This document shows, piece after piece, positions 195 to 49,341 of a stretch of DNA of 52,461 nucleotides (within the stretch, counting starts at the first letter, position 1; each line of letters opens with the position of its first letter). The notes under the pieces were generated by a model that did no database searches, had not been told where the DNA came from, and saw nothing but the letters and a program-made list of their open reading frames with translations. The translations under genes were made by a program, and so were the position numbers. This DNA comes from Oscillospiraceae bacterium (GTDB lineage Bacteria; Bacillota; Clostridia; Oscillospirales; Oscillospiraceae). The stretch is taken from positions 1 to 52,461 of the forward strand of contig JAJBUC010000094.1 of the NCBI GenBank assembly GCA_020860545.1, written 5' to 3'.

Positions 195-719
195 TTAAGG
201 CGTTTGTTTTGGGGCGTTCTCCGCAAGTTTTTTCATCGTCCGATCAGACGCTTCTTTCAGGAGCTTATTCAGGCGTTGGAAATAGAGATAGTCAGCAATT
301 TCCCAATAGTGTTCATTGCGCCAAGCGAAAATTTGAATGATTTGATCGAGTTCCATTCGTTCGGCGCGTTCATCGCCCTTTTCTTTGGCAATGAGGGCTT
401 TGGCTCGGATTTCCTCGACAATACGCATTGTGTTGGTAAGGTCAATCACAGAAGCGTCAAGGCGTTCCAGCGTCTCTTTTTTATAATCATCAAATTCCCG
501 GCCCTCCTGTAATAAGTCGTTGGGGGTAATTTGCAAAATGGAACAAATATCCAAAAGCTTGTCCAGAGAAGGGGTGTATACGCCACGCTCCATTTTGGAA
601 TAGTTTTGATAATTCATGTCTAACATTTGGGCAAATGCAGTTTGATTCTTTTTTTCTTTTAGCCGAAAGTCTTTGATATTTTTTGCAATGTTGGAGACTT
701 GATGCCTACGGATAAACAT
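195..719 (-). CDS. XRE-family helix-turn-helix transcriptional regulator (element repressor-like), 174 aa
   Basis: The N-terminal motif KNQTAFAQMLDMNYQNYSKMERGVYTPSLDKLLDICSILQITPNDLL is a typical HTH_3/XRE domain. I chose the ATG at 719 (MFIRRHQ...) because AAGGAG lies 7 nt upstream. The track start at 737 is a TTG inside a promoter -35 box. Confidence 0.85.
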   Translation of the reverse strand: MFIRRHQVSNIAKNIKDFRLKEKKNQTAFAQMLDMNYQNYSKMERGVYTPSLDKLLDICSILQITPNDLLQEGREFDDYKKETLERLDASVIDLTNTMRIVEEIRAKALIAKEKGDERAERMELDQIIQIFAWRNEHYWEIADYLYFQRLNKLLKEASDRTMKKLAENAPKQTP

Positions 720-730
720 AGAAACACTCC

Positions 731-796
731 TTGACAAAAATTAGGCCAAATTATTCTAAAAACATATTGACAAATTAGGCGCACAAGAGCTATAAT
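731..796 (+). promoter_or_regulatory. Divergent control region with two direct operator-like repeats and a near-consensus sigma-A promoter facing rep
   Basis: The repeat TTGACAAA(A)ATTAGGC occurs at 731-747 and 767-781. The second copy supplies -35 TTGACA (767-772). After an 18-nt spacer comes -10 TATAAT (791-796). Confidence 0.55.
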
Positions 797-880
797 AAAT
801 TAAGTTCATTTGTTCCAACTGGACAACCAGATTATAACCCAAACGAACCTCTTTTGCAAGATGTTTTAGGTTAATAGGCC

Positions 881-1000
881 AAAAAAGCCCCGGCACCGCC
901 GGGCGCGTACAGCGTGAAAGCGCCAGCGGCGGGGGCCGGGGGGATTTGCGCTCCGCGCAAATCCTGTGTAGGGCGTTAAGTAACACCGCCCTACATATAC
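881..1000. other. GC-rich multi-hairpin module in the rep leader (candidate countertranscript, attenuator, oriT or dso)
   Basis: Three hairpins are present: cccggc/gccggg (889-903) preceded by A6 (881-886), which reads as a hairpin plus U6 on the minus strand; ggatttgcgc/gcgcaaatcc (942-964); and tgtagggcg/cgccctaca (967-995). The island is GC-rich inside an AT-rich element. Confidence 0.4.
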
Positions 1001-1059
1001 ATAACAATTGATAACAAATGCAAGGAATAGCAAGGCTTACAGCACAATTTATTTGTGCC

Positions 1060-1077
1060 GAAAATTCAAAGAAAGGA
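1060..1077 (+). repeat. 18-nt motif GAAAATTCAAAGAAAGGA preceding the rep start; second copy at 2327-2344 before xis
   Basis: GAAAATTCAAAGAAAGGA (1060-1077) and GGAAATTCAAGGAAAGGA (2327-2344) share 16 of 18 positions. Each ends 10-15 nt before an ATG, and each is preceded by a similar t(t)g(t)gcc(c)g. Confidence 0.6.
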
Positions 1078-1087
1078 TGTGCCATAA

Positions 1088-2185
1088 ATGGCAAAACGAT
1101 ATGAACTGGAAATCAAAATTGACTATCTGAGCATGGTCTTTGAGTCGATTTGTGCCGAAGAACTGATTTTACGAGTCATGAATATGCCTCTGGATTTATT
1201 TCTGGTGCAGGACAAAAGAGTAAAGTATAAGGAATACACAAAAATCTATCAGTTGGGTAGTGTTAAAGTGTTTGGCGGAGTACCGGAAAGCGAGGGAAAT
1301 CCCGGCGGCTTGGGTTGCTACCTTGTTCTGAGTGGCAAGGGGTGCGATGAATTTATCAATTGTTTTACACACCACGAAGGATACTTTGGAGATTTTTTCA
1401 GCACGTGCAATATTTATCGCTTTCGCAGTCAACAGGCGTTACGGTTCCATCTGACAAGGCTGGATATTGCCATAGACGACAGGAACCCGGTACCCTATTT
1501 CACAATTGATCAGATTCAAAAGAAATGTCTGAAAGAAGAATTCATCTCCCAAAGCCGAAGCTTCCGTTTTGCGGAAAGCAGCTTTGGAGAAGGGGAAACA
1601 GCAAAGACGGTATATATCGGGGATGGCAAGTCCGATATTTCTTACCGCTTCTATGAAAAGGACAAGGAAATGAGCAGCAAATATAACCTTTCCTATGAGG
1701 AAATGGGTAGCTGGAAACGTACAGAGATACAGCTACGGGATGAAGTTGCGCACAACTTTGCCATGCTGATGGCGGAGGAACCGGATAGATTGGGGATGCT
1801 GACCTTCAATTTCCTTGGTGCGTCCCTGCGCTTTGTGACAAGAGATGCAAGCCAGTCCAATAAAAGCAGATGGAAAACAAGCCGTTTCTGGGCGCGGTTT
1901 CTCGGCGCAATTGAACCGTTAAAAATACGAAAAGATACATCGCCGAATAGTCTGTACGAAACGCAGGATTGGTTGCGGGATGGGGGAGCTATGTCCGCAG
2001 TAAAGGCGTTTCAGTTCTTAGAGGAGAATCATGCGCTGGGTGACTTAATGGATATGAATGTGCTGATGTACAACATACGGTATAGCTCTTCTTTGGCCTG
2101 CAAAATGGTTTCCCATCTGCGTGAGATTGGCAGGGATGATTTAGTCCCCATGATCTATCAGAACACAAAAACATCTTATTTATAA
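1088..2185 (+). CDS. Rep_trans-family replication initiation factor / MobT-type relaxase-like protein, 365 aa
   Basis: The size, the N-terminal IDYLSMVFE-type motif and the overall pattern resemble 'replication initiation factor' (Rep_trans, PF02486) proteins of Firmicute ICEs, IMEs and rolling-circle plasmids. This is recognised from memory, not from a search. Confidence 0.7.
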   Translation: MAKRYELEIKIDYLSMVFESICAEELILRVMNMPLDLFLVQDKRVKYKEYTKIYQLGSVKVFGGVPESEGNPGGLGCYLVLSGKGCDEFINCFTHHEGYFGDFFSTCNIYRFRSQQALRFHLTRLDIAIDDRNPVPYFTIDQIQKKCLKEEFISQSRSFRFAESSFGEGETAKTVYIGDGKSDISYRFYEKDKEMSSKYNLSYEEMGSWKRTEIQLRDEVAHNFAMLMAEEPDRLGMLTFNFLGASLRFVTRDASQSNKSRWKTSRFWARFLGAIEPLKIRKDTSPNSLYETQDWLRDGGAMSAVKAFQFLEENHALGDLMDMNVLMYNIRYSSSLACKMVSHLREIGRDDLVPMIYQNTKTSYL

Positions 2186-2359
2186 CAGGAGCGGAGCGCA
2201 GCCGCCCCCGGCGCAGGCCAACGGCTACTACAGGCGGCAGGCATGGAGGTTCCTGTGGGAAACCCTGTTTTCCATAGGGGGAGCTGTGCCGGTCATAATA
2301 AGGCAACAGACCTCGCCCCATTGCCCGGAAATTCAAGGAAAGGAATTGTATAAACAAGT

Positions 2360-2620
2360 ATGGCAGCTACTGATAACAATATGTTTACTGACTATCCCGA
2401 CATTTTAACAACCGAGCAATTAGCGGAAATGCTTCATATTGGGAAATCCTCCGCTTATGCATTGCTAAAACACAATCAAATCCTGCATGTGCGGGTTGGA
2501 CGGAAGTACATTATTCCGAAACAAGCCGTCATTGGCTTTGTTCAGTCCATGTGCTATAATCATACGCAGATAATTAACGATGGGCTTCAATCAGTCACGA
2601 AGGGAGTAATTGACCAATGA
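2360..2620 (+). CDS. xis: Excisionase / MerR-like helix-turn-helix DNA-binding protein, 86 aa
   Basis: The motif LTTEQLAEMLHIGKSSAYALLKHNQILHVRVGRKYIIPKQAV is the HTH_17 excisionase signature. The stop overlaps the integrase start (ATGA at 2617-2620). Confidence 0.8.
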   Translation: MAATDNNMFTDYPDILTTEQLAEMLHIGKSSAYALLKHNQILHVRVGRKYIIPKQAVIGFVQSMCYNHTQIINDGLQSVTKGVIDQ

Positions 2621-3753
2621 CAGGAAGTCTACGAAGCAATCGGGACAATTTCTATGCCATACTCAATTTAAAGGATGAGTTTGGCAACCGCAAGCAAAAA
2701 TCAATTAATCTACATATTAAGGATGTACCCGGCAACAAACGCAAAGCCGAAAAAGCCTTGCGCGACATCCTGACGGAATACGAGAAGAAGCATATCACTG
2801 TTTACCATAAGGATGTGCTGTTTCACGAATACCTGAACGTATGGTTGGATGACGCAAAAGATAACCTTGCATTTAATACCGTGGAGATGTATTCCTGTAC
2901 GATAGATGTGCATATCGCTCCGTATTTTAAGCAACTGAACCTCACACTTATGGAGGTGGAATATTGCCACATCAAAGGATACTATGCGGCAAAAAGCAAG
3001 ACGTTATCGGTTAGTACGCTGAAAAAGCATCATGCAATCATCAAACAGGTTTTGCGTAAAGCGGTTCAGGATGGAATTATCGAAACCAATCCGGCAAATG
3101 AAATCCGATTTCCAAAGATCGAACGGTTTAGGGGTAGTTTCCTGACTGTGGAGGAGGGCAACCACTTATTGGAGGCTGCCAAAGGAACGCCGCTGGAGAC
3201 TGCTATCATATTTGCCATGATGTATGGATTGCGCCGGTCAGAGATTGCAGGCTTAAAATGGAGTGCAATTGATTTAGCAAATGATCTATTCACTGTTCAG
3301 CATACTGTGACGAAATTCAAAACGGAAATTGCGAAGGATAGCACGAAGAACAAGTCAAGCCATCGCGTGTTGCCGCTGAACAGAGATGTAAAGGCGTATT
3401 TGCTCAAATTGCGCGCTAGGCAAGCGCAGGACAAGCTCATATTGGGGCCGGGATATCAGGATACGGATTATATCTGTCGTTGGCCTGACGGACGGGCAAT
3501 GAAGTGTGATTACGTATCCAGAACATTTAAAAGGTTTCTGATCAAGAATGATCTGCCGCTGATTCGTTTTCATGATCTGCGCCACTCCTGCGCAAGTTAT
3601 ATGATCAAGATGGGGCGCTCCATGAAAGAGGTAGCGGACTGGCTGGGGCATAGCGATATTTCAACCTCAATGAACATATATGCCCATATTGATCTGGACT
3701 CAAAAAAGGATGTGGCAGAATGCTTCAACTCTTTGCTCAATGTAGAAGTGTAA
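2617..3753 (+). CDS. int: Tyrosine-type site-specific integrase, 378 aa
   Basis: It has an N-terminal SAM-like/arm-binding region and the catalytic pattern ...GLRRSEIAGLKWSAID...FHDLRHSCASYM...LGHSDISTSMNIYAH (R...HxxR...H...Y). Confidence 0.92.
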   Translation: MTGSLRSNRDNFYAILNLKDEFGNRKQKSINLHIKDVPGNKRKAEKALRDILTEYEKKHITVYHKDVLFHEYLNVWLDDAKDNLAFNTVEMYSCTIDVHIAPYFKQLNLTLMEVEYCHIKGYYAAKSKTLSVSTLKKHHAIIKQVLRKAVQDGIIETNPANEIRFPKIERFRGSFLTVEEGNHLLEAAKGTPLETAIIFAMMYGLRRSEIAGLKWSAIDLANDLFTVQHTVTKFKTEIAKDSTKNKSSHRVLPLNRDVKAYLLKLRARQAQDKLILGPGYQDTDYICRWPDGRAMKCDYVSRTFKRFLIKNDLPLIRFHDLRHSCASYMIKMGRSMKEVADWLGHSDISTSMNIYAHIDLDSKKDVAECFNSLLNVEV

Positions 3754-3754
3754 T

Positions 3755-3778
3755 GTGTGATGCAAAGTGTGATGCAAA
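3755..3778 (+). repeat. Perfect tandem 12-mer (GTGTGATGCAAA x2) immediately after the integrase stop
   Basis: Read directly at 3755-3766 and 3767-3778. Possible arm-type integrase or Xis binding sites near the element end. Confidence 0.6.
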
Positions 3779-3814
3779 TGGGAATCCTGAAAATCTAACT
3801 TGCCAAAAAGTTAT

Positions 3815-3842
3815 AAAAAAGACCGTTTTCCGAAGAAAACAG
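3815..3842 (-). terminator. Rho-independent terminator of tRNA-Leu
   Basis: On the minus strand, CUGUUUUC-UUCG-GAAAACGG is followed by UCUUUUUU. One pair is G.U on the minus strand but C.A on the plus strand, so the structure is specific to the minus-strand RNA. Confidence 0.65.
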
Positions 3843-3852
3843 CCGTTTTTGA

Positions 3853-3940
3853 TGGTGCGCGAGGCGGGACTTGAACCCGCACGTGCGTAATGCACACTAG
3901 AACCTGAATCTAGCGAGTCTGCCAATTCCACCACTCGCGC
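3853..3940 (-). tRNA. tRNA-Leu (anticodon CAG), class II with a long variable arm and encoded CCA
   Basis: The reverse complement reads GCGCGAG...CTAGA-TTCAGGT-TCTAG...GCGGGTTCAAGTCCCGC-CTCGCGC-A-CCA. This gives a 7-bp acceptor stem, the T-loop GTTCAAGTC, and an anticodon loop TTCAGGT (CAG). Confidence 0.93.
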
Positions 3941-4134
3941 GCATAAGTCAAATTGGACGAAAAAAATAGAGCCAGTAGAGCCAGTACCGTTTTGACCTTA
4001 GTTATTGTAGCGTATCTTTCTAAGAATGTCAATCCTAAATTATTATCGCGCAACGCGCGAAAATGCATAAACAGGCCCGCTGCTGGAAAAACTACCAACA
4101 ATATTGGGGGAATCAGGCAGGAGGCGGCGTGATC

Positions 4135-5670
4135 ATGTCAAATAAGCGTGCAAGGCAGGAGAGCAGTGAAAAGCAAGCGAGAAATGCATATAGGGAAAAG
4201 CTGGGGAAATTGCACTTTTCTCACTCGCTGGAGAAAAATATTGCACTGATAAAAGAGCTGTTTTGCGATGTGGATATTATGAAATATCGCACAATAGAGG
4301 GGCAGCGGAGCTATTGCTTGATTTGGTCGGAAGGCATGGTGTCGTCGGAGCAGATTAACGATTTTATTATTAAGCCGCTGCTGCTTTTTACGCCCTCGGA
4401 GCAGGAGGAGCCGATTCTCGATATGCTGACACACCATGTGCTGCAAGTTAATGAGATCAAAAAGACAGGAGATTTATTTGAGCTTGTCAAGATGCTCTCT
4501 TACGGAGAGACGCTTTTGCTCACAGAAGGGGAAGAAGAGGGGCTGCTGCTTGACACAAAATCCTTTACGACGCGCAGCATCAACGAGCCGGACGCCGAGA
4601 AGATACTAAGCGGGCCACGGGAGGGGTTTTCGGAATCGCTCATGCAAAACCTGTCGCTGGTACGCCGCAAGCTGCGGACAAGTGAACTGAAGTTGAAAAT
4701 GCGGTCGATGGGGCAGCAGAGCAACACGCAGATTTGTGTTGCATATCTGGACGGGATTGTAAAGACGGAAGTACTTGACGAGCTCAACCGAAGGCTGGAT
4801 GCCATTGAAATTGACGCGGTGCTGGACGCAAACTATCTCAATGAGTTGATCAAAGACGACAAACACTCTCTCTTCCGGTCGACGGGATACACCGAACGGC
4901 CCGATGTTGTGGTGTCAAAGATTCTGGAAGGGCGGGTAGCCATTTTTGTCGATGGCTCACCGGTGACGCTCACGGTGCCGTATCTTTTCGTGGAGAACTT
5001 TCAGAGCAGTGAGGATTACTATGTCAATTATTATTATGCGTGCATCTCCCGGTTACTGCGGTTTATGAGTTTTTTTATTGCCATTACCGTTCCGGGACTT
5101 TTTGTTGCAATCCTATCCTATCATCAGGAGATGCTCCCCACGGTGCTGCTCATTCGCATTGCGGTGGATAGCCGCAATGTACCGTTTCCAACTATCATTG
5201 AAACATTTGCACTGCTGATTATGTTCGACATTCTGCGCGAGGCCGGCGCGCGTATGCCCACCGGGGTAGGCCAGGCACTGAGCATTGTCGGTGCGCTGGT
5301 TGTGGGCTCTGCAGCGGTGGATGCGGATCTGGTCTCCGCCAATGTCATCATTATTGCGGCGGCTTCCGGCATCACAAGTTTGCTTGTTACAAGGCTTAAC
5401 GCTGCAATTCCAATTGTTCGGAATCTCCTGATGGTGCTTGCCGCCGCTGCCGGGTTTTACGGTTTGGTACTTGGTATTTCCGTACTGTTCATCCAAATAC
5501 TCAGATTGGAGTCGTTTGGCGTTCCGCAGATAGGCTGGGATACCACCTTGCGCTACCAGAATATTAAGGATACCTTCATCCGCGGGCCGATGTGGCAGAT
5601 GTCCGAGCGGCCGAATGGATTGACGGAGAATAAAGTGCGCCTGCGCACGCGCAGGGGTGGAAAACAGTGA
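4135..5670 (+). CDS. Spore germinant receptor A subunit (GerA/GerKA family), 511 aa
   Basis: It has a GerA-family N-terminal soluble domain (LLLTEGEEEGLLLDTKSFTTRSINEPDAEKILSGPREGFSESLMQNLSLVRRKLR) and a C-terminal multi-TM region. The ATG at 4135 has GGAGG upstream. The track start at 4063 adds a non-homologous prefix. Confidence 0.9.
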   Translation: MSNKRARQESSEKQARNAYREKLGKLHFSHSLEKNIALIKELFCDVDIMKYRTIEGQRSYCLIWSEGMVSSEQINDFIIKPLLLFTPSEQEEPILDMLTHHVLQVNEIKKTGDLFELVKMLSYGETLLLTEGEEEGLLLDTKSFTTRSINEPDAEKILSGPREGFSESLMQNLSLVRRKLRTSELKLKMRSMGQQSNTQICVAYLDGIVKTEVLDELNRRLDAIEIDAVLDANYLNELIKDDKHSLFRSTGYTERPDVVVSKILEGRVAIFVDGSPVTLTVPYLFVENFQSSEDYYVNYYYACISRLLRFMSFFIAITVPGLFVAILSYHQEMLPTVLLIRIAVDSRNVPFPTIIETFALLIMFDILREAGARMPTGVGQALSIVGALVVGSAAVDADLVSANVIIIAAASGITSLLVTRLNAAIPIVRNLLMVLAAAAGFYGLVLGISVLFIQILRLESFGVPQIGWDTTLRYQNIKDTFIRGPMWQMSERPNGLTENKVRLRTRRGGKQ

Positions 5671-6809
5671 GACGATTGATTCAATTCCTGCTGCTTATCG
5701 CTCTGCTGGGCGGATTGCTAAGCGGATGCTGGGATTACCGGAGTATGAATGAGATAGATATTGTGGCGGGCATAGCGGTTGATCGAGATGAGGAAACAGG
5801 GGAATATCAGCTGCTGCTTGAGGTCATTGATCTCAATTCGCTCAAAGAGGGGACTGGAGGATCTAACAGCCTGTATATTGAAACAAGCGGGAAAGACATT
5901 CGAGAGGCCCTGCTTAACACCCAAAGGCGTCTTTACAGTACGCTGTTCTTTAGCAACATGGAGGTGCTGGTCATCAGCAAGGAAATCGCTGAGACGGAAG
6001 GCATTCACGATGTTTTGGAGTTTTTTCTGAGTGGAGCCGAGGTGCGCGAGGCGATGAGTATTGTAATTTCCGGGCAGGACAAGGCGGCGGATATCCTGCA
6101 AGTCAGCGGTTTGGATTCCAAAATCGCCTCTTTCGAAATTGAACAGATGGTGCGCAATTATCAGAAGAATCATATTGGTGCGTCATCGGTAGATATTTTT
6201 CAGGCATACGCGGCGCTGGAGGAGGAGGGCAGGTGTTTGCTTCTGCCTGTATTTAAAACAGAAAAGAACAACAACGATACGATTGTGGAAGCCTGTGCAA
6301 CCGCCTATTTTGAGGAGGATAAGCTGGTCGGTATGCTCAATGAAGAAGCGACGCGTTTTTACTCGCTTCTTGTCGGCGCGCCAACAGAGATTGTACTCTC
6401 CGTGCCGTCGCTTTCCGAACCGGGACAGGACGACTCCTATCTGGTTGATCACTGTATGGACAAGCAATCGGTACGGCTTGAGGAGGGAAAACTGGTGATC
6501 TCCCGTGAACTTGAGCTGGAAGTAACCCCGCAGGTGGTGCATTATTTTGGGATACAATCCAATCAGCAAGAGGTAGAGCTGGAACAATATCTTTCCAAGG
6601 TGCTGGAAGCACGGCTTGAGGGATTTTTCGGCAAGATACAGCGGGAGGTCGGCATAGATGTCTTTGATTACGCGGCGAAGGTATATCAGCAGGATCCGGA
6701 GGCTTATGAGGCGGTAAAAGACAGATGGGGAGAGATATTCCAGGATGCGGAACTTACTGTCAACGCCAATATCCAGATTCGGCCAAACGGAACAATATTG
6801 AGGAAATAG
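5667..6809 (+). CDS. Germinant receptor C subunit (Ger(x)C lipoprotein), 380 aa
   Basis: Signal peptide with lipobox LLSGC followed by WDYRSMNEIDIVAGIAVD, the canonical GerAC N-terminus. There is a 4-nt overlap with the A subunit. Confidence 0.9.
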   Translation: MRRLIQFLLLIALLGGLLSGCWDYRSMNEIDIVAGIAVDRDEETGEYQLLLEVIDLNSLKEGTGGSNSLYIETSGKDIREALLNTQRRLYSTLFFSNMEVLVISKEIAETEGIHDVLEFFLSGAEVREAMSIVISGQDKAADILQVSGLDSKIASFEIEQMVRNYQKNHIGASSVDIFQAYAALEEEGRCLLLPVFKTEKNNNDTIVEACATAYFEEDKLVGMLNEEATRFYSLLVGAPTEIVLSVPSLSEPGQDDSYLVDHCMDKQSVRLEEGKLVISRELELEVTPQVVHYFGIQSNQQEVELEQYLSKVLEARLEGFFGKIQREVGIDVFDYAAKVYQQDPEAYEAVKDRWGEIFQDAELTVNANIQIRPNGTILRK

Positions 6810-6816
6810 GGATTAT

Positions 6817-7041
6817 ATGGGGACGGCGTTTGTAATAATTTTTTATATCGTCTGCATTCCGCTTTATTTCATACCTGTTCAGCGGCATGGGAACCGGGCT
6901 ATTCTGTTGCTAGGTGTGGTTGGATTTGCTGTTAGTTTTGTGCTGCTGCTTATCGTCAGCTGCGATGTGCAGATGCCCAATTTGGTGGAAGAGCTTAATA
7001 GAATAGCGGAGAAATATCATTTGATAAGTGCAGGAGGGTAA
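6817..7041 (+). CDS. Small two-TM membrane protein inside the ger operon (possible germinant-receptor D-type subunit), 74 aa
   Basis: Two hydrophobic helices (AFVIIFYIVCIPLYFIPV and AILLLGVVGFAVSFVLLLIVS) are followed by a short soluble tail. It is tightly packed between the C and B genes, with gaps of 7 nt and 5 nt. Confidence 0.55.
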   Translation: MGTAFVIIFYIVCIPLYFIPVQRHGNRAILLLGVVGFAVSFVLLLIVSCDVQMPNLVEELNRIAEKYHLISAGG

Positions 7042-7046
7042 GCGCG

Positions 7047-8174
7047 ATGCCGAACAGACCGATATCAGCGAGAAATCTGGGATGTCTTATTTCGCTGTTG
7101 GCAATGAGTAGTCTGCTTATCAGCGGGTTTAACCGGTCGGAAAACGATATGTGGTTTACTATGATTGTAACCCTTGTCGGATTTTTTCCACTGATGCTGA
7201 TAACCTGCCGCACTGCAACACTACATCCCGGACGTGGATTATTTGATATTCTGGAGATTCTCTGCGGCAAATGGATTGGCAAGATCCTCACCGTGGCTTT
7301 GGTGATTTACGGGATTGGAATATGCAGTATAGTTTTATGTAATTTTGCGGAATTCCTCAAGGATATTGCATTTCCAGACACGCCATTTTATTTCATTGCT
7401 GTTTGCATGGCTTTGGTGGCTATTTATCTTGCCAACAGCGGGATAGAAAATATGGGGAAGTGGGCGTTGACGGTAACTATTGCCATTTGCACCGTGTTTG
7501 TCATCACCCTACTCCTATCCGTCAACTTAATGGATGTGCAGAATCTTTTCCCCATTCTGCAGGCGAAAAAAAGTACACTGCTGGCGGAAGGCCTTTATGG
7601 CGGAATGATCTGTTACGGAGAGAGTTTTTTGGTCTTGGCCTTTTGCGGAGATCTCAAGCGTGGGGACAGTCCGTATAAGGCATATGGCATTGGATATGCA
7701 ATTGGATTTGTCGTTATGATCGTAACATTTTTGCGCAACGTTTTAATCCTTGGGGGTGTTCTGCTGCAATCCACTGCGTACCCGCCGTACGTTATCGCTC
7801 GTATCATTAAGGTGGGAGAATTTTTAGAGCATGTGGAGAGCATCGTTTCTTTTGTCTATATATTTCTCGGTATTACCAAGGTGGCGGTCTGCTTGCGGGT
7901 TTCCGCGCTCGGGCTGGAAAAGGTAATGCATACAAAGGTAGAGGAGCGGAAGTACCTGAGCCTCCCCATTGTATTCTTTGTGCTGGCGCTTTGCGTCTTT
8001 GTCTCTACCAATGTTGCGCAGATTTTAAAATTTGTTACCGTCTATTTTTATCTGGCGATCCCGTTTTTAGTGGTGCTTCCGGTTGTACTCTGGATTCTAT
8101 CGGAGGTGCGCCATGCGAGGCAAAAAAAAGCGGCTGCACCGGAACGAACGGTGCAGCCACAGCATAGCAAATAG
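7047..8174 (+). CDS. Germinant receptor B subunit (GerAB/GerKB, APC-superfamily-like permease), 375 aa
   Basis: Polytopic membrane protein of typical GerAB size and hydrophobic pattern. AGGAGGG lies 8 nt before the ATG, and the operon context fits. Confidence 0.85.
   Translation: MPNRPISARNLGCLISLLAMSSLLISGFNRSENDMWFTMIVTLVGFFPLMLITCRTATLHPGRGLFDILEILCGKWIGKILTVALVIYGIGICSIVLCNFAEFLKDIAFPDTPFYFIAVCMALVAIYLANSGIENMGKWALTVTIAICTVFVITLLLSVNLMDVQNLFPILQAKKSTLLAEGLYGGMICYGESFLVLAFCGDLKRGDSPYKAYGIGYAIGFVVMIVTFLRNVLILGGVLLQSTAYPPYVIARIIKVGEFLEHVESIVSFVYIFLGITKVAVCLRVSALGLEKVMHTKVEERKYLSLPIVFFVLALCVFVSTNVAQILKFVTVYFYLAIPFLVVLPVVLWILSEVRHARQKKAAAPERTVQPQHSK
8122..8158 (-). terminator. Rho-independent terminator of alaS, embedded in the 3' coding end of the convergent gerAB gene
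   Basis: On the minus strand, GGCTGCACC-GTTCGTTCC-GGTGCAGCC forms a 9-bp stem and is followed, after GC, by an 8-nt U tract (A8 at 8122-8129 on the plus strand). It lies 27 nt downstream of the alaS stop. Confidence 0.75.
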
Positions 8175-40110: not shown

Positions 40111-40917
40111 TTGGGGAAGTTTGACGGTGTGCTCTTGGCGAGCGATTTTGATGATACGCTCTACACGCAGGACGGCGTCCTGCCGGATGCGAACCGGCGG
40201 GCGGTGGAATATTTCGTATCCGAGGGGGGTTATTTTACCGTTGCGACCGGCAGAGCGCACCCGACCTTTGCCCCTTGCGCCCACCTCGTCCCCATCAATG
40301 TGCCTGTTGTACTCTCGAACGGCTCGGCGCTCTATGACTTCCGGGCGGATTACATGGTCTATGAGACCTTTCTCCCCTTGCGCGTTGCAGAGGATATGGC
40401 GCAGGTGGCCGCGCGCTTTCCCGCGCTGGGCTTTGAGGCCTATCATGGGGATGATATCTATGCCTATAATCCAAATCTTGTGACGGAAAATCATCTGGCG
40501 CGCTCGAACAGCAGCTGCATATGCTGCCCGATTGCCAACATTCCACTGCCATGGAACAAGGCGATTTTGCAGCAGAATAACGGGCTTCTGCGGCAGGTGC
40601 AGAATGACATGCTCTCCCGGTGGAGTGAGCATTATGAAGTGATTTTCTCTAACGAGGTGCTCCTTGAGCTGACACGAAAGGGGAGCAATAAGGGCGGCAT
40701 GGTGCGCTATCTTGCCGATTTGCTTGGGGTTACATCGCAGCATATCTACTGCGTGGGGGATAATCAGAACGATTTGCCGATGCTGGAAATTGCGGCGGTC
40801 GGATTCGCACCGGCGAACTGCGCGGACGAGGTGAAAAAGCTGGGCGTGAAGCGCCTCTGCCCCTGTGAGGAGGGGTGCATTGCCGAGGTGGTGGAATTTT
40901 TGGATCGGCGGTATTGA
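40111..40917 (+). CDS. Cof-type HAD-IIB family hydrolase (sugar/pyrimidine phosphatase-like), 268 aa
   Basis: Contains DFDDTL (motif I), a cap domain, and GDNQNDLPMLE (motif IV). The start is a TTG with GGGAGG 8 nt upstream, 18 nt after thiT. Confidence 0.85.
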   Translation: MGKFDGVLLASDFDDTLYTQDGVLPDANRRAVEYFVSEGGYFTVATGRAHPTFAPCAHLVPINVPVVLSNGSALYDFRADYMVYETFLPLRVAEDMAQVAARFPALGFEAYHGDDIYAYNPNLVTENHLARSNSSCICCPIANIPLPWNKAILQQNNGLLRQVQNDMLSRWSEHYEVIFSNEVLLELTRKGSNKGGMVRYLADLLGVTSQHIYCVGDNQNDLPMLEIAAVGFAPANCADEVKKLGVKRLCPCEEGCIAEVVEFLDRRY

Positions 40918-42687: not shown

Positions 42688-43536
42688 ATGGAACAGAAAG
42701 CTATGCGGAAAGAAATTGTGTTGCCGGTCATCGCGGCTGCAGGTGGTGTGGCGGGATTTTTCCTGCGCCGTTGGGAGCTCGCCACCGCGTTTGAAAGCGA
42801 CACCGGGCTGCAGATTGCAGGGATGCCCGCGACGTACGCGCTCCTTTTGCTCTCCGCCGTGATGGTGGTGGTGTTTCTGCTGCTCGGGCGCAGTAAAGCA
42901 CCCTTTCAGGGCGGGTATTACGAGGCGTTTTACATGAAGGGAAACCGGGTTTTCGCAGTCATCAACACGGTGGCGGCGTTTCTGCTGCTGATTTCTGGGT
43001 TCCTGAACCTGTATGGCTATGCGAGCCATACCCACACCTCTTTGATCCGCGTGCTGCTGGGATTTTTGTGTATTATCACCTTTATTTTTGTCCTCGTGCT
43101 TACGCGGGATAATCTGCGCGGCTTAGGCAGCGGAAAGTTCCGCTTTTCCCTGCTGGTGCCGGCGTATAATTTCTGCCTGTGGCTGATCTGTGCCTATCAG
43201 GAGCGGGCGGTTGACCCGGTTATCGGCGACTATGTCTACCAGATGTTTGCGATTATCGCCTCGCTTCTGGGGCTGTACTTTATCGCAAGCTTTTCCTTCG
43301 GGCGGGGCAGAGTGGCGGCGACCGGCATTATGTCCGGCCTCGGGGTTTATTTTTCTATCGTCGCGATGGCGGATCGCACTGACACCGCGACAAAGCTGCT
43401 GCTCGGGTTTGCCATCCTCTATCTGCTGGTCGGGATGGTGTCCATGTATGCAAATATCCGCTGCCGCACAGGTGCGCCTGTGGCGGAGGCAACAGAGCCT
43501 GAAATGACAGAGGAGGCGCCTTCTCATGAAACGTAG
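42688..43536 (+). CDS. Polytopic membrane protein of unknown function, about 282 aa
   Basis: It has about seven hydrophobic segments. The start is ambiguous (TTG 42673, ATG 42688 or ATG 42703). The 3' end overlaps metG by 11 nt. Confidence 0.65.
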   Translation: MEQKAMRKEIVLPVIAAAGGVAGFFLRRWELATAFESDTGLQIAGMPATYALLLLSAVMVVVFLLLGRSKAPFQGGYYEAFYMKGNRVFAVINTVAAFLLLISGFLNLYGYASHTHTSLIRVLLGFLCIITFIFVLVLTRDNLRGLGSGKFRFSLLVPAYNFCLWLICAYQERAVDPVIGDYVYQMFAIIASLLGLYFIASFSFGRGRVAATGIMSGLGVYFSIVAMADRTDTATKLLLGFAILYLLVGMVSMYANIRCRTGAPVAEATEPEMTEEAPSHET

Positions 43537-45463
43537 GCAATATTATATTACAACACCCATCTACTACCCGTCCGACAAGCTGCACATCGGGCATGCATAC
43601 TGCACCGTCGCGGCAGACGTTATGGCGCGCTATAAGCGACTGCAGGGCCATGACGTGATGTTCCTGACGGGTACGGATGAGCACGGGCAGAAGATTGAAC
43701 AGAAAGCGCGCGAGGCGAAGGTCTCCCCGCAGCAGTTTGTCGACCGGGTTGTCACGGGCAAGGGCGGCGTGCTCGACCTGTGGAATCTGATGAATATCAG
43801 CAATGACCGCTTTATCCGCACGACTGACGACTACCATGTGGAGTCGGTGCAGAAGATCTTTCGCAGGCTGCATCAGCAGGGGGATATTTATAAGGGCAAG
43901 TACGTCGGAAAATACTGCACCGACTGTGAGGCGTTCTGGACGGAGACGCAGCTGCAGGACGGGAAATGCCCCGACTGCGGACGGCCCGTAAAGGACGCCG
44001 AGGAGGAGGCGTACTTTTTCCGCCTGTCCAAGTATCAGGACAGGCTCGAGAAGCTGTATGAGGAGAATCCGACGTTTTTGGAGCCCGCCTCCCGCCGCAA
44101 CGAGATGATCAATAACTTTTTAAAGCCGGGGCTGGAAGACCTGTGTGTCTCGCGCACCTCCTTTTCGTGGGGCATCATGGTGGACTTTGACCCGAAGCAT
44201 GTGGTCTACGTCTGGGTGGACGCGCTGACCAACTATATCACGGCGCTCGGATATCAGAACGGGAAGTATGAGGATTTCCATGCCTTTTGGCCTGCCAACG
44301 TCCACTTTGTGGGCAAGGAGATTGTCCGCTTCCATGCCCTCATCTGGCCTGCGCTTTTGATGGCGCTGGATCTGCCCCTGCCGGAAAAGGTGTTTGGTCA
44401 CGGCTGGCTTCTGCTCGACGGCGGGAAGATGTCCAAGTCCAAGGGGAATGTGGTCGATCCCTATCTACTCGCAAACCGCTACGGTGTGGACGCGCTGCGC
44501 TATTTCCTGCTGCGCGAATTCCCCTTCGGGACGGACGGGAACTTCTCCAATGAGGCGCTCATCTCCCGCATCAATGTGGATCTTGCGAACGATCTCGGCA
44601 ATCTGGTCTCCCGCACCATTGCGATGGTGGACAAATATTTTGGCGGGCAGCTGCCGGAGACGCAGGCGGAGGACGAGGCGCAGGACAGGGAACTGACCGA
44701 TCTCGCGCGTGCGCTGCAAAGCGCCTATGAAGCGCAGATGGAGGCATTTGCCTTCCAGAACGCGCTTGTGGAGATCTTTCAGCTGATTGGGCGGGCCAAT
44801 AAATATATCGACGAGACGGCACCGTGGGTGCTCGCCAAGGACGAGGCAAACCGCCCCCGTCTCGCGCGCGTGCTCTACAATCTGCTGGAGAGCATCCGTA
44901 TTTGTACGGTATTGCTCACCCCCTTTCTGCCCAAAACTGCGGAGGAAATCTTTCTGGAGATCGGTGCCGCGCCGGAAAACACGACGTGGGAATCGGCAGC
45001 GGAGTGGGGGCTTTTGCCGCGCAATGTCGTCATCGTAAAGGGCCCGGCTCTCTTCCCGCGCATTGACGCGGAGCAGGAGCTCGCGGCGCTCTCGGCGCTT
45101 GCGCCGTCCGCCGGCGCGCAGGAGCATGCGCCCGCGGAGGAGATCGGCTTTGAGACGTTCGAAAAGGTGGAGATGACGGTCTGTAAGGTGCTCGCGTGCG
45201 AGCGGGTGAAAAAGAGCGATAAGCTGCTGAAATTCACGTTGGACGACGGCACGGCTCAGCCGCGCCAGATTCTCTCCGGCATCGCGAAGTACTACGCGCC
45301 CGAGGAGCTGGTGGGAAAAACCGTCGTGGCGTGCACCAACCTCGCGCCCCGCAAGATGATGGGACAGCAGTCCTGCGGTATGCTGCTCTCGGCGGAGCAG
45401 GGGGAAAGCCTGACGCTGCTGCTGCTCGACGATGCGATCCCCGCGGGGGCAAAGCTGTGCTGA
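43526..45463 (+). CDS. metG: Methionine--tRNA ligase with a C-terminal tRNA-binding (Trbp111/EMAP-like) domain, 645 aa
   Basis: Contains the HIGH variant (KLHIGHAY), KMSKS, the Zn knuckle CTDCEAFW...CPDCG, and a C-terminal segment KVEMTVCKVLACERVKKSDKLLKFTLDDG. Confidence 0.96.
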   Translation: MKRRQYYITTPIYYPSDKLHIGHAYCTVAADVMARYKRLQGHDVMFLTGTDEHGQKIEQKAREAKVSPQQFVDRVVTGKGGVLDLWNLMNISNDRFIRTTDDYHVESVQKIFRRLHQQGDIYKGKYVGKYCTDCEAFWTETQLQDGKCPDCGRPVKDAEEEAYFFRLSKYQDRLEKLYEENPTFLEPASRRNEMINNFLKPGLEDLCVSRTSFSWGIMVDFDPKHVVYVWVDALTNYITALGYQNGKYEDFHAFWPANVHFVGKEIVRFHALIWPALLMALDLPLPEKVFGHGWLLLDGGKMSKSKGNVVDPYLLANRYGVDALRYFLLREFPFGTDGNFSNEALISRINVDLANDLGNLVSRTIAMVDKYFGGQLPETQAEDEAQDRELTDLARALQSAYEAQMEAFAFQNALVEIFQLIGRANKYIDETAPWVLAKDEANRPRLARVLYNLLESIRICTVLLTPFLPKTAEEIFLEIGAAPENTTWESAAEWGLLPRNVVIVKGPALFPRIDAEQELAALSALAPSAGAQEHAPAEEIGFETFEKVEMTVCKVLACERVKKSDKLLKFTLDDGTAQPRQILSGIAKYYAPEELVGKTVVACTNLAPRKMMGQQSCGMLLSAEQGESLTLLLLDDAIPAGAKLC

Positions 45464-45482
45464 CTTGGTGCTGGAATAGCCC

Positions 45483-45523
45483 GCGGCGGTGCCGAAAAAT
45501 GGATCCGGGCACCGCCGCTTTTT
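45483..45523 (+). terminator. Rho-independent terminator of metG
   Basis: GCGGCGGTGCC-14 nt-GGCACCGCCGC forms an 11-bp stem and is followed by TTTTT. Confidence 0.85.
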
Positions 45524-45531
45524 ATGTATTG

Positions 45532-45750
45532 ATTGACAATATCCATTTTTTATGAAATACTTTAACTGAATAAAATAGATCTTCGAGCGTATCCGGCTAA
45601 GGGCGATGCCTAGGCCGGGTGCGCCAGGCAGTGACAGCTGCCTCGGGGCTTTTGCGGAAACGCGAATGCCTGCCCACGTTGCGCAGGAGATTTTCAGAAT
45701 GGTCCGTTATCCATGGGCGCATTCCGCATCTTCTGATGCGGAATTTTTTA
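45532..45750 (+). promoter_or_regulatory. Promoter-like site plus a long structured leader ending in an intrinsic terminator (riboswitch/attenuator-like) upstream of the 880-aa protein
   Basis: TTGACA (45532-37), then 17 nt, then AATACT. In the leader, gcgtatccggc pairs with gccgggtgcgc over 11 bp including two G.U pairs. The terminator is ATTCCGCATC-ttct-GATGCGGAAT plus TTTTTT (45721-45750), 38 nt before the GTG start. An alternative pairing GCGAATGC / GCATTCCGC could act as an antiterminator. Confidence 0.5.
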
Positions 45751-45788
45751 TTGTCCGCATTATTTATATCATTGGGAGGAAAATAACT

Positions 45789-48431
45789 GTGAAAAAAAGA
45801 TTGCTACCCTATCTGCTCAGCGCTGCCCTGGTGCTGGCAATCGCGCTGCCCTTGGTGCCGGCATATGCGGCGGATACATATTCCCCGCGTTTTCCGACTG
45901 GAGCAATGGATGTTACCAGCACAACCGATGGCTCGGCACGCTATCTCACCACACTGACCCAGCAGGACGCCAGCTTGATTCCTCTCGTGTTTGGAGTGAA
46001 TGTCATAGGCGGCGATATGGACCCGATGTTTCAAGAATTGGCGGGGACGGAGGTGAATATTTACCCTGACCCCTATGTGTGGAACTACAATTACGAGGAA
46101 AATACCGGGCGTTTACTTCCAGACGGCACCGCTTATAGCGACTTCGGCAACATAGGTGTGGACGCAAACGGTTTGTTCGCCTCCGGCGGTGCCAACCAGA
46201 CCTACGTTGAGCCGCAGGAGGACTATGGTGGTACAGGCTATGCGGTTGGTTGCCGCTCCGACGTTATCATCGGCTTTCAGTCCCTGTTATATGACCAGAT
46301 AGACCTTGTCAACTCATGGCGTGCAGGGTATGAATTTTATCAGGCAGGGGATGAGGACTACCGTCCGCTTATCCTCGATGTGCAGACCGGCTCCGTGACC
46401 TCCCGCCTGTACGCGTGGGCGGAGATGGGGCAGGCGCTCTCCGCATATCTGGACGCAGATGAGAATGAAGACATGGGCGTCCGCTATGGCGATCCCCATG
46501 CCATTGCGGTGGATCTGGAGGCGTTTTCCGCCGGGATCCCCTACTACATCGCGTCCCTGATTGCGAGCGGAGATATAGATAAGAAAACCATGGCCTATAT
46601 TGCTTCGATTGATGGTGCAACCTTGACCGCTGTGGATCCCGGTATGCTGGGGAATGTTACGTCCGACCTTTTTGCCGAGGTGAACAATTTCAACTTTCTG
46701 GAGGGCCATTGCACCCTTTCGGATCTGATGGCTGCGGACGTAGACGTCATTGTCCTTGGCGTCTTCGGCAACAGCTATGTCGGCGGAGGGGAGGAGAACA
46801 GCAAAGTTGACGCCGACAAGCTTAGGATCATCAACGACCTGTATGACTTGGGTTATTCCGCCGAGGAGTTTCCCCTGATCATGGACGCTGACACCATCAG
46901 CGTTATGGTTGGAGAATACGGCTACGGCAACTCCCCCATTACGCCCCTGCTCATGCCATACATTCAGGCGTATGCTTATATGGATGAGCTGGATAGCATT
47001 AATTCAGCTATCAATCCCGTGGCCATGGTTCAGTTTGCAACAGAAATGTTCTTCCATACAACAGAAGATGCCGCCGCTGATGTTGCCGGCTACTACATTG
47101 ACGCGCACTGGGATTCTGTCGCCCCGTACTATGACCAGGTTCCGGAGCTGGAAAACTATACGTATGACAAAAATGCCATCATCGCGGCGATACAGGAGGG
47201 CGTTCAATACGCACTTTCCGGTGCAGCAGAGAAGAACGGCAATCTGCTGCTGGGGGCCTACCGGACAACAGACAATGCCTACTCCATCCTGACGGAATAT
47301 ACGCAAAATTACAAAACAAGTCAAGCTAATTACATAAAACTTACGGTGGAAGGTCAAACCAGATATCTGGATTTAGACGCCCTGTCAACCGCTTCCATAA
47401 ACGATGCTTCCGGTAGCGCAATCATTTCCTATTATGAAGATGGTGTTTTCAACTACGGCGCCGACCTTCAAACAACCCTGCAAAACTATGCCGACCACAT
47501 GCAGGAGCACGTTTGGCAGCCCGACACGACTGTTCCCGGAACCTGCTGTTACGGGATGACAGCCGACACGAACAATAGTAGTGATAGTCAACTGTCAGAA
47601 GGCACGCAGGTGTTGCTCAGCGCCGGTTGGACACAGGAGGAAATTGATGATTTGCTTTCAGACGATGTGATCAGGGGCTATGCGGACACAACATTCGCCG
47701 GAGAGTCAGAAAAGCAGTACTTCAAAGTGTCGGACGATGGAACGATTTATTCGCTGTCTGAAACGGACTGCCTGCAGCAGGTCTTTGCGATTAAGCAGCA
47801 GGAGGCGGCATCTAACCTGATCTCTGCGGCGAGCATCGCCGTAGGGGATACAGATCAGTCTGAAGTAACTACTTCAGATGGCTACATGGTCTACTATGTA
47901 CAGGCATATAGAAAGAGCAATGATGAGTTTATTATATCCGCAAGATTTGAATGGATTATCACTCCTTTTTATAAGAATGTCGATGTGTTCGGGTTGGGGC
48001 ATGACGACAAACTGACGCAAATAGATGATAGTGCGTACTACGCATTTAAGTATACAGTTTACGAGACCATGGGCGGCAAGTCTTACCCCGTCGATTATTA
48101 TTCCACAAACACACCCACCAAAATACAAGTAGATGAAGGCGGCACCGTAATCAGTCAGGATCTATCTGCCAATTGGTCTGTTTGGGGTACGCATACCGGA
48201 CTGGTGCGCAAAAACTTCACGGGATATATTCAGTATCAGGTAAGAGCAGCATATACGAATACCGCCACCATCAATACAGCAGCATTGATCTACGCTGAGT
48301 ACTATCATCAGAAAAAGGCCGTGAGTGTATCACCGTCCATCGGCTATCCGGCGAATGTGTCCATATCAGCCAATATGGAAAGTTACTTTGACCAGATGAG
48401 CCCGAATCCGGCTCTCACTTTGGTATTTTAA
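45789..48431 (+). CDS. Secreted protein of unknown function, 880 aa
   Basis: The GTG at 45789 lies 8 nt after GGGAGGA. The signal peptide is KKRLLPYLLSAALVLAIALPLVPAYA/AD. The gene is more AT-rich than its flanks. I recognised no anchoring or catalytic motif. The 61 upstream in-frame codons in the track cover the leader and terminator and are not taken as coding. Confidence 0.8.
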   Translation: MKKRLLPYLLSAALVLAIALPLVPAYAADTYSPRFPTGAMDVTSTTDGSARYLTTLTQQDASLIPLVFGVNVIGGDMDPMFQELAGTEVNIYPDPYVWNYNYEENTGRLLPDGTAYSDFGNIGVDANGLFASGGANQTYVEPQEDYGGTGYAVGCRSDVIIGFQSLLYDQIDLVNSWRAGYEFYQAGDEDYRPLILDVQTGSVTSRLYAWAEMGQALSAYLDADENEDMGVRYGDPHAIAVDLEAFSAGIPYYIASLIASGDIDKKTMAYIASIDGATLTAVDPGMLGNVTSDLFAEVNNFNFLEGHCTLSDLMAADVDVIVLGVFGNSYVGGGEENSKVDADKLRIINDLYDLGYSAEEFPLIMDADTISVMVGEYGYGNSPITPLLMPYIQAYAYMDELDSINSAINPVAMVQFATEMFFHTTEDAAADVAGYYIDAHWDSVAPYYDQVPELENYTYDKNAIIAAIQEGVQYALSGAAEKNGNLLLGAYRTTDNAYSILTEYTQNYKTSQANYIKLTVEGQTRYLDLDALSTASINDASGSAIISYYEDGVFNYGADLQTTLQNYADHMQEHVWQPDTTVPGTCCYGMTADTNNSSDSQLSEGTQVLLSAGWTQEEIDDLLSDDVIRGYADTTFAGESEKQYFKVSDDGTIYSLSETDCLQQVFAIKQQEAASNLISAASIAVGDTDQSEVTTSDGYMVYYVQAYRKSNDEFIISARFEWIITPFYKNVDVFGLGHDDKLTQIDDSAYYAFKYTVYETMGGKSYPVDYYSTNTPTKIQVDEGGTVISQDLSANWSVWGTHTGLVRKNFTGYIQYQVRAAYTNTATINTAALIYAEYYHQKKAVSVSPSIGYPANVSISANMESYFDQMSPNPALTLVF

Positions 48432-48907
48432 TGATGAGAACGAAAATGATTGGGTTGCTGTCCGTTCTATGCTGTGTGCTGTTCGTTATCCTCCTTATTT
48501 TGGGTCGGCAATATACGTATCTGCGTGGTGAGCGAGACTTTATTTTACATAATGTGGATACCATATTTGAATCCACATTCTCCCGCTTATATACAGATAT
48601 TTTTCAAAATGACAATTCAAGCATTGACCCTGCACGCGATGCCACCTATGCGGCGGACGGGAAGTATTGCCGGACGCTCTATACCCTGAGTTCCTATTCA
48701 GACCAAAACAAAATGTTACAATCAATTGTATATGCCATGGCGGGGATGGTGGGACCAAACCCAGAAAACCGATCTTATGAGGTAATCACAGACCAGGAGT
48801 TGATAGCCGATTTATCATATTTACGTTTACACCTTGACGATGTGGACCTGACAAACGAAGTATGGGAAAGGCTTTCCGCGCAGCTAATACCTATAGAGTC
48901 GGAATAA
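48431..48907 (+). CDS. N-terminally membrane-anchored protein of unknown function, 158 aa
   Basis: The start overlaps the upstream stop (TAATG). There is one TM helix (IGLLSVLCCVLFVILLILG) followed by an acidic soluble domain. I recognise no family. Confidence 0.7.
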   Translation: MMRTKMIGLLSVLCCVLFVILLILGRQYTYLRGERDFILHNVDTIFESTFSRLYTDIFQNDNSSIDPARDATYAADGKYCRTLYTLSSYSDQNKMLQSIVYAMAGMVGPNPENRSYEVITDQELIADLSYLRLHLDDVDLTNEVWERLSAQLIPIESE

Positions 48908-49093
48908 GAACACTTCCCCCTGCAAAGGGATATTGTAACATTGAGAGACTAGTTAGCATATGACATTGACGACACGGAAAAACAGCTGAAATGCTTGCTG
49001 TATTCAAAGCCCAACTGCAGCCGATAGAGACAGCTGAGTGAGTAGAAAAAGCGCTGCCGTACTATAAATTATTACAAGGTAATTTAAAGGCGA

Positions 49094-49134
49094 GCCGAGG
49101 GACTGTTTTACAGACGCCTCGGCTTTGCTTTGTT
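49094..49134 (+). terminator. Rho-independent terminator closing the two-gene cassette
   Basis: GCCGAGG-16 nt-CCTCGGC is followed by TTTGCTTTGTT. Confidence 0.6.
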
Positions 49135-49248
49135 GTAAGGAATTCTCTTACCTCAATTTTGCCTGTACCTCTGTGCGGATGATCCGCATTTCTGCATTAA
49201 TAAAGAGCCAATCCTGCAATAATGCATGCCATTATAGGGCAAATTTGC

Positions 49249-49277
49249 TTGACAGGGACGCGGATGGGCTATAAAAT
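49249..49277 (+). promoter_or_regulatory. Sigma-A promoter upstream of rny
   Basis: -35 TTGACA (49249-54), a 17-nt spacer, then -10 TAAAAT (49272-77). Confidence 0.55.
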
Positions 49278-49341
49278 AGAACTGTATAGAACTTTTTGTG
49301 AATTTGGCATAGCATTAAGTAAACTGTACATAGCTGCATGA

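Follow-up and report, generated by a model that had tools for sequence, protein, structure and literature searches.

A molybdenum cofactor riboswitch upstream of a putative chimeric binding-protein-like gene and its membrane-anchored partner in an Oscillospiraceae bacterium

The Isd/NEAT relay of Gram-positive bacteria leads from a wall-anchored receptor to the lipoprotein IsdE and from there to the FecCD permease IsdF, and BslK of Bacillus anthracis is an example of the NEAT type that is anchored by SLH domains. A different pairing is that of TelC and TipC in Streptococcus, in which a secreted toxin goes with a membrane-anchored extracellular immunity protein. Both arrangements are compared here with the interval between metG and rny in contig JAJBUC010000094.1 of an Oscillospiraceae bacterium (assembly GCA_020860545.1; the whole stretch of 52,461 nt is called the window), where a leader of the Rfam riboswitch class RF01055 precedes two overlapping genes, A and B, that encode a large protein with a Sec signal peptide and a small protein with a single N-terminal hydrophobic helix (Table 1). 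RF01055 members that contain the P3 stem go with the versions responding to the molybdenum cofactor (Moco) and not with those for the tungsten cofactor (Tuco) (Regulski et al., 2008; PMC2408646). In Eubacterium limosum, RF01055 lies upstream of two "Fe ABC-type" (ATP-binding cassette) transporters, fetABC1/2; the platform of fetABC1 is a terminator, and limitation for tungsten induces this transporter (PMC11725836). Both the riboswitch class and its position before iron-annotated ABC transporters are already known. MolBC-A (HI1470/71/72) of Haemophilus influenzae is a type II, FecCD-type importer of molybdate/tungstate with the class III binding protein MolA (PMC4031551). Molybdate has been described as the only molybdenum (Mo) source known to be bioavailable, and sulfidic anoxic habitats turn molybdate into thiomolybdate (PMC11484787). 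A FecCD importer with a surface receptor, under the control of a Moco riboswitch, would bear on the question of how anaerobes of the gut and rumen acquire Mo or tungsten (W) in such sulfidic habitats.

The leader of gene A matches RF01055 over model positions 1-135 of 135 at 70.2 bits, the gathering score being 36 (E = 4e-16), and its P3 stem is both aligned by cmscan and folded as a 7-bp hairpin by RNAfold. The minimum-energy fold of the leader recovers the aptamer stems together with a terminator hairpin (z = -4.2 with respect to shuffles), and since this hairpin begins 15 nt 3' of the aptamer and is followed by a U-run, the layout suggests control by transcription termination; by analogy, the switch would have OFF polarity, with Moco repressing. 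The original prediction had described a block with its own promoter-like site, a long structured leader, two open reading frames (ORFs) joined by a TAATG overlap and its own terminator, and all of these were found, the leader being the Moco riboswitch. The leader resembles the described Moco/Tuco class (PMC2408646) in its full-length match, its stems P1-P5 including P3, its terminator-type platform and its location in the 5' leader of a gene that appears to be related to uptake. It differs in that the gene controlled here is not mod, tup, moa or a molybdoenzyme gene, and appears instead to encode a large secreted binding-protein-like chimera without an adjoining transporter gene.

About 38 clusters of Clostridia homologues align to A from residue 1 to ~590 with 37-58% identity and define what is called here the N-module. 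Most of these proteins are ~800 aa long and end in three SLH domains; the remaining ones carry choline-binding (Choline_bind_4) or FIVAR/FG-GAP-like C-termini, or end at ~580-600 aa. The anchor position behind the N-module appears to be exchangeable among these relatives. A itself keeps 46/46 family-invariant positions, and neither an LPXTG motif nor a lipobox was found in it, while SLH (PF00395) stayed below the Pfam cut-off (E = 0.14); the earlier reading of A as a protein with a Sec signal peptide and none of these three anchors is thus confirmed. In the AlphaFold2 model of the N-module (predicted local distance difference test, pLDDT, 88; predicted template modelling score, pTM, 0.92), beta/alpha segments alternate to either side of a pair of long helices (model residues 179-198 and 212-236), and the top 15 Foldseek matches in PDB are class III siderophore/haem binding proteins, including YiuA, CeuE, FhuD, FepB, BhuT and PiaA. 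The N-module, which is about twice the usual size of a class III binding domain, is predicted to be a much-enlarged form of this fold. Sequence comparison of the family with PDB gave no informative match, the matches found being to SLH or signal peptides only. The likeness to Peripla_BP_2 that had been proposed from the motifs SDVIIGF, KTMAYIASIDG and ADVDVIVLG (which begin at residues 157, 266 and 316 of A, respectively) holds for the fold and for the FecCD gene context described below, though not for the Pfam profile itself.

N-module genes were examined in the window and at seven homologue loci (L011, L012, L093, L094, L095, L096 and L098). An importer gene order is common to all of the seven except L094: an ABC ATPase is followed by one or two N-module genes, a lipoprotein of 563-626 aa, two FecCD permeases, DUF58, DUF4129 and MoxR (the ATPase is unseen at L093, where the locus begins inside the operon). 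This FecCD-type context is present at 6/7 homologue loci and absent from the window, and A is a riboswitch-led paralogue detached from the usual operon. The operon lipoprotein is a class III binding protein too, with a match to PDB 4ovk (E = 4e-9) and weak ones to Peripla_BP_2 and BtuF. It was also tried as a paralogue of the N-module and rejected, as hhalign aligned the signal peptides only. The L098 permease matches FhuB, HmuU, HI1471 (MolB; E = 4e-24) and BtuC about equally, and no sequence relation to MolA was detected. The link with molybdenum comes from the surrounding genes: the closest homologues that could be examined, P0003 (L096) and P0004 (L098), are 58-60% identical and belong to operons that start with RF01055 (61 and 69 bits, respectively) and end with moeA, and at L095 a divergent moeA lies upstream of the operon, which feoAB also adjoins. 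No RF01055 or other riboswitch was found in L011, L012, L093, L094 or L095, and both moeA and RF01055 are absent in L011, L012 and L093. Counted over the eight loci, the riboswitch is present in 3/8, moeA in 3/8 and any Mo link in 4/8. From these gene neighbourhoods, the riboswitch and the N-module of A would derive from a Moco-linked importer system.

The homologue loci showed some further arrangements. The N-module surface protein is tandemly duplicated at L011 (7346-12460), with two SLH versions, and at L093 (10001-15460), with two choline-binding versions. At L098, a second, canonical importer (Peripla_BP_2/ABC_tran/FecCD x2; 233-4217, minus strand) is divergent from the riboswitch-led N-module operon. 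At L094 (5135-16856), the stand-alone homologue P0037 (573 aa) lies beside a MotA/ExbB-like gene, DUF2149 and an ORF of 2984 aa or more, with MoxR and a transglutaminase-core protein upstream and no FecCD gene in view.

The homologue operons, and these only, resemble MolBC-A in three respects: FecCD-type permeases, a predicted class III fold of the binding protein and a molybdenum link. MolBC-A, on the other hand, is a Gram-negative, periplasmic system with a single small binding protein, whereas the operons described here encode a lipoprotein and a wall-anchored protein of ~570 aa, plus MoxR, DUF58 and DUF4129. The E. limosum fetABC1/2 loci (PMC11725836) are alike in that a gut Firmicute carries RF01055 before an iron-annotated ABC transporter that is induced under limitation of a cofactor metal; their riboswitches differ in being without P3 (Tuco type), and the main text of that paper mentions no wall-anchored protein resembling a solute-binding protein, no MoxR module and no moeA. 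With the Isd/NEAT relay the operons share the principle that genes for an outer receptor anchored to the wall, for a lipoprotein of the class III binding type and for a FecCD importer lie together, although the outer receptor, which would pass the ligand on, is here binding-protein-like rather than NEAT.

Behind residue ~600, A continues with a C-module that belongs to another family, for which a profile search of 1.84 billion representatives gave 487 clusters (50% identity, E <=1e-3). Its homologues are stand-alone secreted proteins of 290-370 aa, e.g., in Vallitalea guaymasensis, and the window protein is the only long fusion among the best 150 of the 487 matches. All family-invariant residues of the C-module are kept in A. 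Its AlphaFold2 model (pLDDT 71.5, from a shallow alignment) is beta-rich, as had been proposed for the C-terminus of A; Foldseek gave only weak matches to beta-sandwiches of adhesins, pilins and lectins (template modelling, TM, score <=0.38) and nothing among viral structures (TM <=0.24). Neither A nor 99 C-module relatives matched a Pfam family or had a sequence relative in PDB, and PHROGs gave no match for the C-module or its partners. Among the C-module proteins, LPXTG motifs were found in 0 and lipoboxes in 3/98, and no riboswitch was found at the stand-alone C-module loci. The helical head of the C-module, GWTQEEIDDLL, was considered as a degenerate SLH motif and rejected (hhalign against the SLH region of N-module homologues, probability 0.04).

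A gene resembling B lies directly 3' of 12/12 full-length C-module genes for which downstream sequence is available (the window, L003, L004, L007 and eight metagenome loci), mostly with a 4-nt overlap; truncated C-modules have no partner gene. These partners are proteins of 143-158 aa, homologous to B, with one N-terminal hydrophobic helix. B has the same helix followed by an acidic helical ectodomain (isoelectric point 4.35), in agreement with what had been read from its sequence. The profile of the partners has a weak likeness to helical repeats of the armadillo type, its PDB matches being weak ones to designed armadillo proteins, and 11 partners searched against Pfam gave no match. Partners are 15-35% identical to each other, compared to ~40% among C-modules. 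The ratio of non-synonymous to synonymous substitution rates (dN/dS) between B and its L001 homologue P0041 is 0.16, and B is under purifying selection. The B ectodomain would bind the C-module, an expectation that is common to a tethering role and to an effector-immunity role of the pair. Neither A nor B matched a family in Pfam or NCBIfam, while homologue families were found for both, and the description of A as an orphan is not borne out in view of the ~38 N-module clusters, the 487 C-module clusters and the B homologues beside all full-length C-modules. Literature searches returned no description of the wall-anchored binding-protein-like family, of the MoxR/moeA operon, of the C-module/partner family or of the fusion in A.

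A nucleotide relative of the 3' part of the unit was found in locus L001, from another Oscillospiraceae metagenome-assembled genome (MAG; GCA_021201735.1), where positions 5720-6305 are 79% identical to window positions 48312-48897, a stretch that takes in the final 39 codons of A and the whole of B. In the spacer between B and rny, a second partner gene survives as a frameshifted remnant (known from this one locus) with 80% nucleotide identity to L001 5616-5724, the 3' end of a 155-aa partner paralogue. L001 5148-6321 consists of two tandem units, each with a 3' stub of a C-module (~30-40 codons; the match of the first stub is very weak, E = 4.4) and an intact partner gene, and since the order of partner types is permuted in L001 with respect to the window, a past as a tandem array is indicated. 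No C-module relatives were found among IMG/VR viral contigs, GenBank phages or PLSDB plasmids. In 0/80 related Oscillospiraceae/Clostridia genomes (L013-L092, compared with window 43526-50952) does rny lie within 10 kb downstream of metG, and neither A nor B was found near metG in those 80 loci; the absence of this adjacency places the cassette at a synteny break, and with a best MetG identity of 71%, the species collection offers no close representative of the organism. Two further contigs carry gene calls whose products fall into the 90%-identity clusters of A and B, which argues against an assembly chimera, and the fusion is probably real. The homologies on its two sides suggest that gene A is a chimera in which the wall anchor has been replaced by the C-module, which would have brought its partner gene with it.

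Two other observations concern loci of this family. Upstream of the L001 units are the genes of a 409-aa SLH protein and of a secreted protein of 1127 aa that has a Peptidase_C39_2 domain at its C-terminus, and a truncated 206-aa C-module without a partner occurs in the same MAG (L010). In Vallitalea guaymasensis (CP058561; L003), a 57-aa protein with a weak Phage_holin_5_2 match (7486-7659) is encoded 340 nt upstream of the stand-alone C-module/partner pair, and genes for a CI-like repressor and for an SH3_3 protein are also found near the pair.

The composition of the block was compared with that of the 24 other genes of the window, which have a GC content at third codon positions (GC3) of 0.720 (sd 0.074) and a codon adaptation index (CAI) of 0.682 (sd 0.070). 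The values are 0.619 and 0.605 for codons 1-590 of A, 0.522 and 0.528 for codons 591-880, and 0.472 and 0.444 for B, and the B-rny spacer has 41% GC. The shift towards AT-rich, A/T-ending codons, from which a single foreign two-gene cassette had been proposed, is therefore real but graded, being strong only from about codon 590 of A onward. The view of the whole block as foreign was not upheld: the C-module, B and the partner remnant are the strongly atypical parts, and the 3' part has its nucleotide match in another MAG, while A is apparently chimeric and its riboswitch and N-module match an operon typical of the lineage. A gerA/gerC/spore-permease operon at window 4063-8174 also has a GC3 of 0.52-0.60, compared to 0.69-0.80 in housekeeping genes, and low GC3 on this contig is therefore not confined to the cassette.

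The model that is tentatively preferred, as the leading possibility, is that of a Moco-repressed transcription unit for a chimeric surface capture protein docked on the membrane protein B. Transcription would start at the promoter-like site (45533-45561) and the leader would fold into the Moco aptamer, the terminator forming when Moco is plentiful and read-through occurring when it is scarce. A would be exported via Sec, as its signal peptide indicates; its N-module would capture the importer substrate outside the cell, most likely a Mo or W species, and pass it to the lipoprotein binding protein, while the ectodomain of B would bind the C-module and keep A at the outer face of the membrane. 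Tethering is favored because the C-module occupies the exact site of the wall anchor of the relatives and a capture protein must stay at the surface. Several results weigh against this model. No FecCD, ATPase or binding-protein gene is present on the 52-kb contig, so that the importer that A would serve is unseen; the Peripla_BP_2 (PF01497) hidden Markov model (HMM) matches neither A (E <=1) nor 10 homologues (E <=0.01), and the Foldseek matches of the N-module are weak (E 2e-3 to 6e-2, TM 0.26-0.45 normalised to the target); RF01055 was still not found at permissive thresholds in L011, L012 and L095; and the C-module stands alone in all others of the best 150 matches, unlike a general anchoring domain. 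Additionally, the two intact partners beside stubs, although seen at one locus (L001), suggest that a partner is of value even when its cargo is missing, in better agreement with immunity than with anchoring. The two possibilities set out in the original prediction, a capture module with its partner or an effector with its partner, are still the right pair of hypotheses, and the second of these, although unlikely on balance, is the main rival as regards the role of the pair. In that case the C-module would be an antibacterial or lytic effector secreted via Sec, and B the outward-facing, membrane-anchored protein that gives immunity to it; in A, the effector would be fused behind a nutrient-receptor-like domain that could direct it to cells with the matching importer, and the protein would be made when Moco is scarce. 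The tight coupling of a small, fast-evolving downstream gene (with the partners more divergent than the C-modules), the atypical composition of the C-module and B, the scattered, non-syntenic insertion sites of the pair, the retention of two partner genes in L001 with the low dN/dS of B against P0041, the second-partner remnant in the window, the secretion of C-module proteins without an anchor, the otherwise unfused state of the C-module among those best matches and the weak likeness of the partners to helical-repeat binders all speak for this reading. Like the TelC/TipC pair, the unit has a small outward-facing single-pass membrane protein encoded right after a secreted protein; in contrast to it, no LXG or other delivery domain and no recognisable toxin fold are present. 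Pfam, NCBIfam, PHROGs and the PDB sequence search revealed no toxin or enzyme domain, and the fold matches of the C-module are those to adhesin, pilin and lectin beta-sandwiches. The C-module is almost never found on other trunks among the best 150 of 487 matches, unlike polymorphic toxins, and neither arrays of alternative C-termini nor plasmid or phage copies were found.

A second question is the substrate, which is most likely either a Mo/W species or an iron chelate, with a lean towards Mo/W because moeA sits in the operon. The same architecture with an iron chelate (siderophore or haem) as substrate is somewhat unlikely; the riboswitch would in that case tie the uptake of iron to the needs of molybdo- and tungstoenzymes rich in Fe-S, an idea put forward for E. 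limosum. In its favor, the authors of the E. limosum work call the two transporters behind RF01055 iron transporters (PMC11725836), the structural neighbours of the N-module all bind siderophores or haem, the FecCD permease is equally near to FhuB, HmuU, HI1471 and BtuC, and feoAB lies beside the L095 operon. Conversely, moeA is found inside two operons and beside a third, the E. limosum fetABC1 responded to tungsten limitation with its substrate unmeasured there (PMC11725836), and MolBC-A demonstrates that FecCD-type importers can carry molybdate (PMC4031551). A recent accidental fusion without a function of its own, in which a deletion or recombination put a mobile C-module/partner unit behind an N-module gene led by the riboswitch and the product is now in decay, would account for the uniqueness of A among the best 150 C-module matches, for the composition step at the junction, for the partner pseudogene next to it, which shows an eroding locus, and for the lack of a cognate transporter on the contig. 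This reading is nevertheless quite unlikely because the frames are intact (880 codons in A) and the invariant residues of both families are all conserved; the ribosome-binding site (RBS), the signal peptide and the overlap with B are intact as well, B is under purifying selection and other contigs contain gene calls from the clusters of A and B. Beyond the preferred model of a tethered, Moco-repressed capture protein, a more far-reaching and rather improbable reading is that the N-module family, including A, forms the outer receptor of an unrecognised route of Mo/W acquisition in anaerobic gut and rumen Clostridia. A binding-protein-like scavenger, tethered to the wall or the membrane, would capture a form of Mo or W other than free molybdate (a candidate ligand may be thiomolybdate, a complex of the metal with a chelator or even the pterin cofactor) and feed a FecCD importer under Moco-riboswitch feedback, with the MoxR-type chaperone module and MoeA possibly acting downstream; the window may then represent a variant that is tethered by a two-protein docking pair. 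An importer of the FecCD type under a Moco riboswitch, with an additional binding-protein-like receptor exposed at the surface and with moeA in one operon, is a directly testable candidate, for which the window gene offers a self-contained riboswitch-to-receptor unit for cloning, and the C-module/partner pair is a widespread two-gene module of Clostridia outside Pfam for which the natural fusion provides a handle on docking versus effector-immunity.

The features of the metG-rny interval are collected in Table 1. A 941-aa reading of A from the ATG at 45606 was rejected because this codon falls inside the riboswitch aptamer, the first 61 codons spanning the aptamer and terminator; a 910-aa call for an A-type gene is present in public data, and both the 941-aa and the 910-aa versions need correcting to 880 aa. 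The metG terminator is not listed by a simple terminator scan because its loop exceeds 8 nt, and the downstream hairpin at 49093-49124 is not listed in that scan either.

Table 1. Positions of the features of the metG-rny interval in the window
Feature	Position	Strand	Details
metG terminator hairpin, upstream boundary	45483-45524	+	GCGGCGGTGCC ... GGCACCGCCGC then TTTTTAT; read from sequence
Sigma-70-like promoter, putative	45533-45561	+	TTGACA-17-AATACT with TG ahead of the -10; consensus match only, 10/12 positions
Moco riboswitch aptamer, Rfam RF01055	45569-45705	+	P3 stem present; covariance-model match
Expression platform, intrinsic terminator hairpin	45721-45754	+	10 bp, loop of 4, then U-run
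RBS of A	45774-45779	+	GGGAGG, 9 nt 5' of GTG
Gene A	45789-48431	+	GTG start, 880 aa
Sec signal peptide of A, residues 1-28	45789-45872	+	MKKRLLPYLLSAALVLAIALPLVPAYA/AD; predicted cut after AYA
N-module of A, residues 29-589	45873-47555	+	Predicted divergent class III solute-binding-like domain; from homologues, AlphaFold2, Foldseek and operon contexts
Ser/Thr/Asn-rich junction of A, residues 590-600	47556-47588	+	Two homology regions meet; alignment ends
C-module of A, residues ~601-880	47589-48428	+	Short helical head (GWTQEEIDDLL) and predicted beta-sandwich
Gene B	48431-48907	+	158 aa; start overlaps the stop of A as TAATG
Frameshifted remnant of a second B-like partner gene	48941-49048	+	Last ~36 codons; LAYDIDDTEK / TAEMLAVFKAQLQPIETAE, then stop; in the B-rny spacer
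Terminator-like hairpin, end of unit	49093-49135	+	AGCCGAGG ... CCTCGGCT, U-rich tail; hairpin 49093-49124; read from sequence

Two other parts of the window deserve mention. A thiamine pyrophosphate (TPP) riboswitch (RF00059) at 39322-39435 on the plus strand scores 64.9 bits against a gathering score of 54.3 and lies immediately 5' of two ORFs, at 39361-40092 and 40111-40917, with overlap into their listed start. At window 1088-3940, a region with a GC content of 0.44 contains a rolling-circle Rep gene (Rep_trans + Rol_Rep_N, 1088-2185), a tyrosine integrase gene (2617-3753) and a tRNA gene on the minus strand (3856-3940), and has the appearance of a small element that is integrated next to a tRNA.

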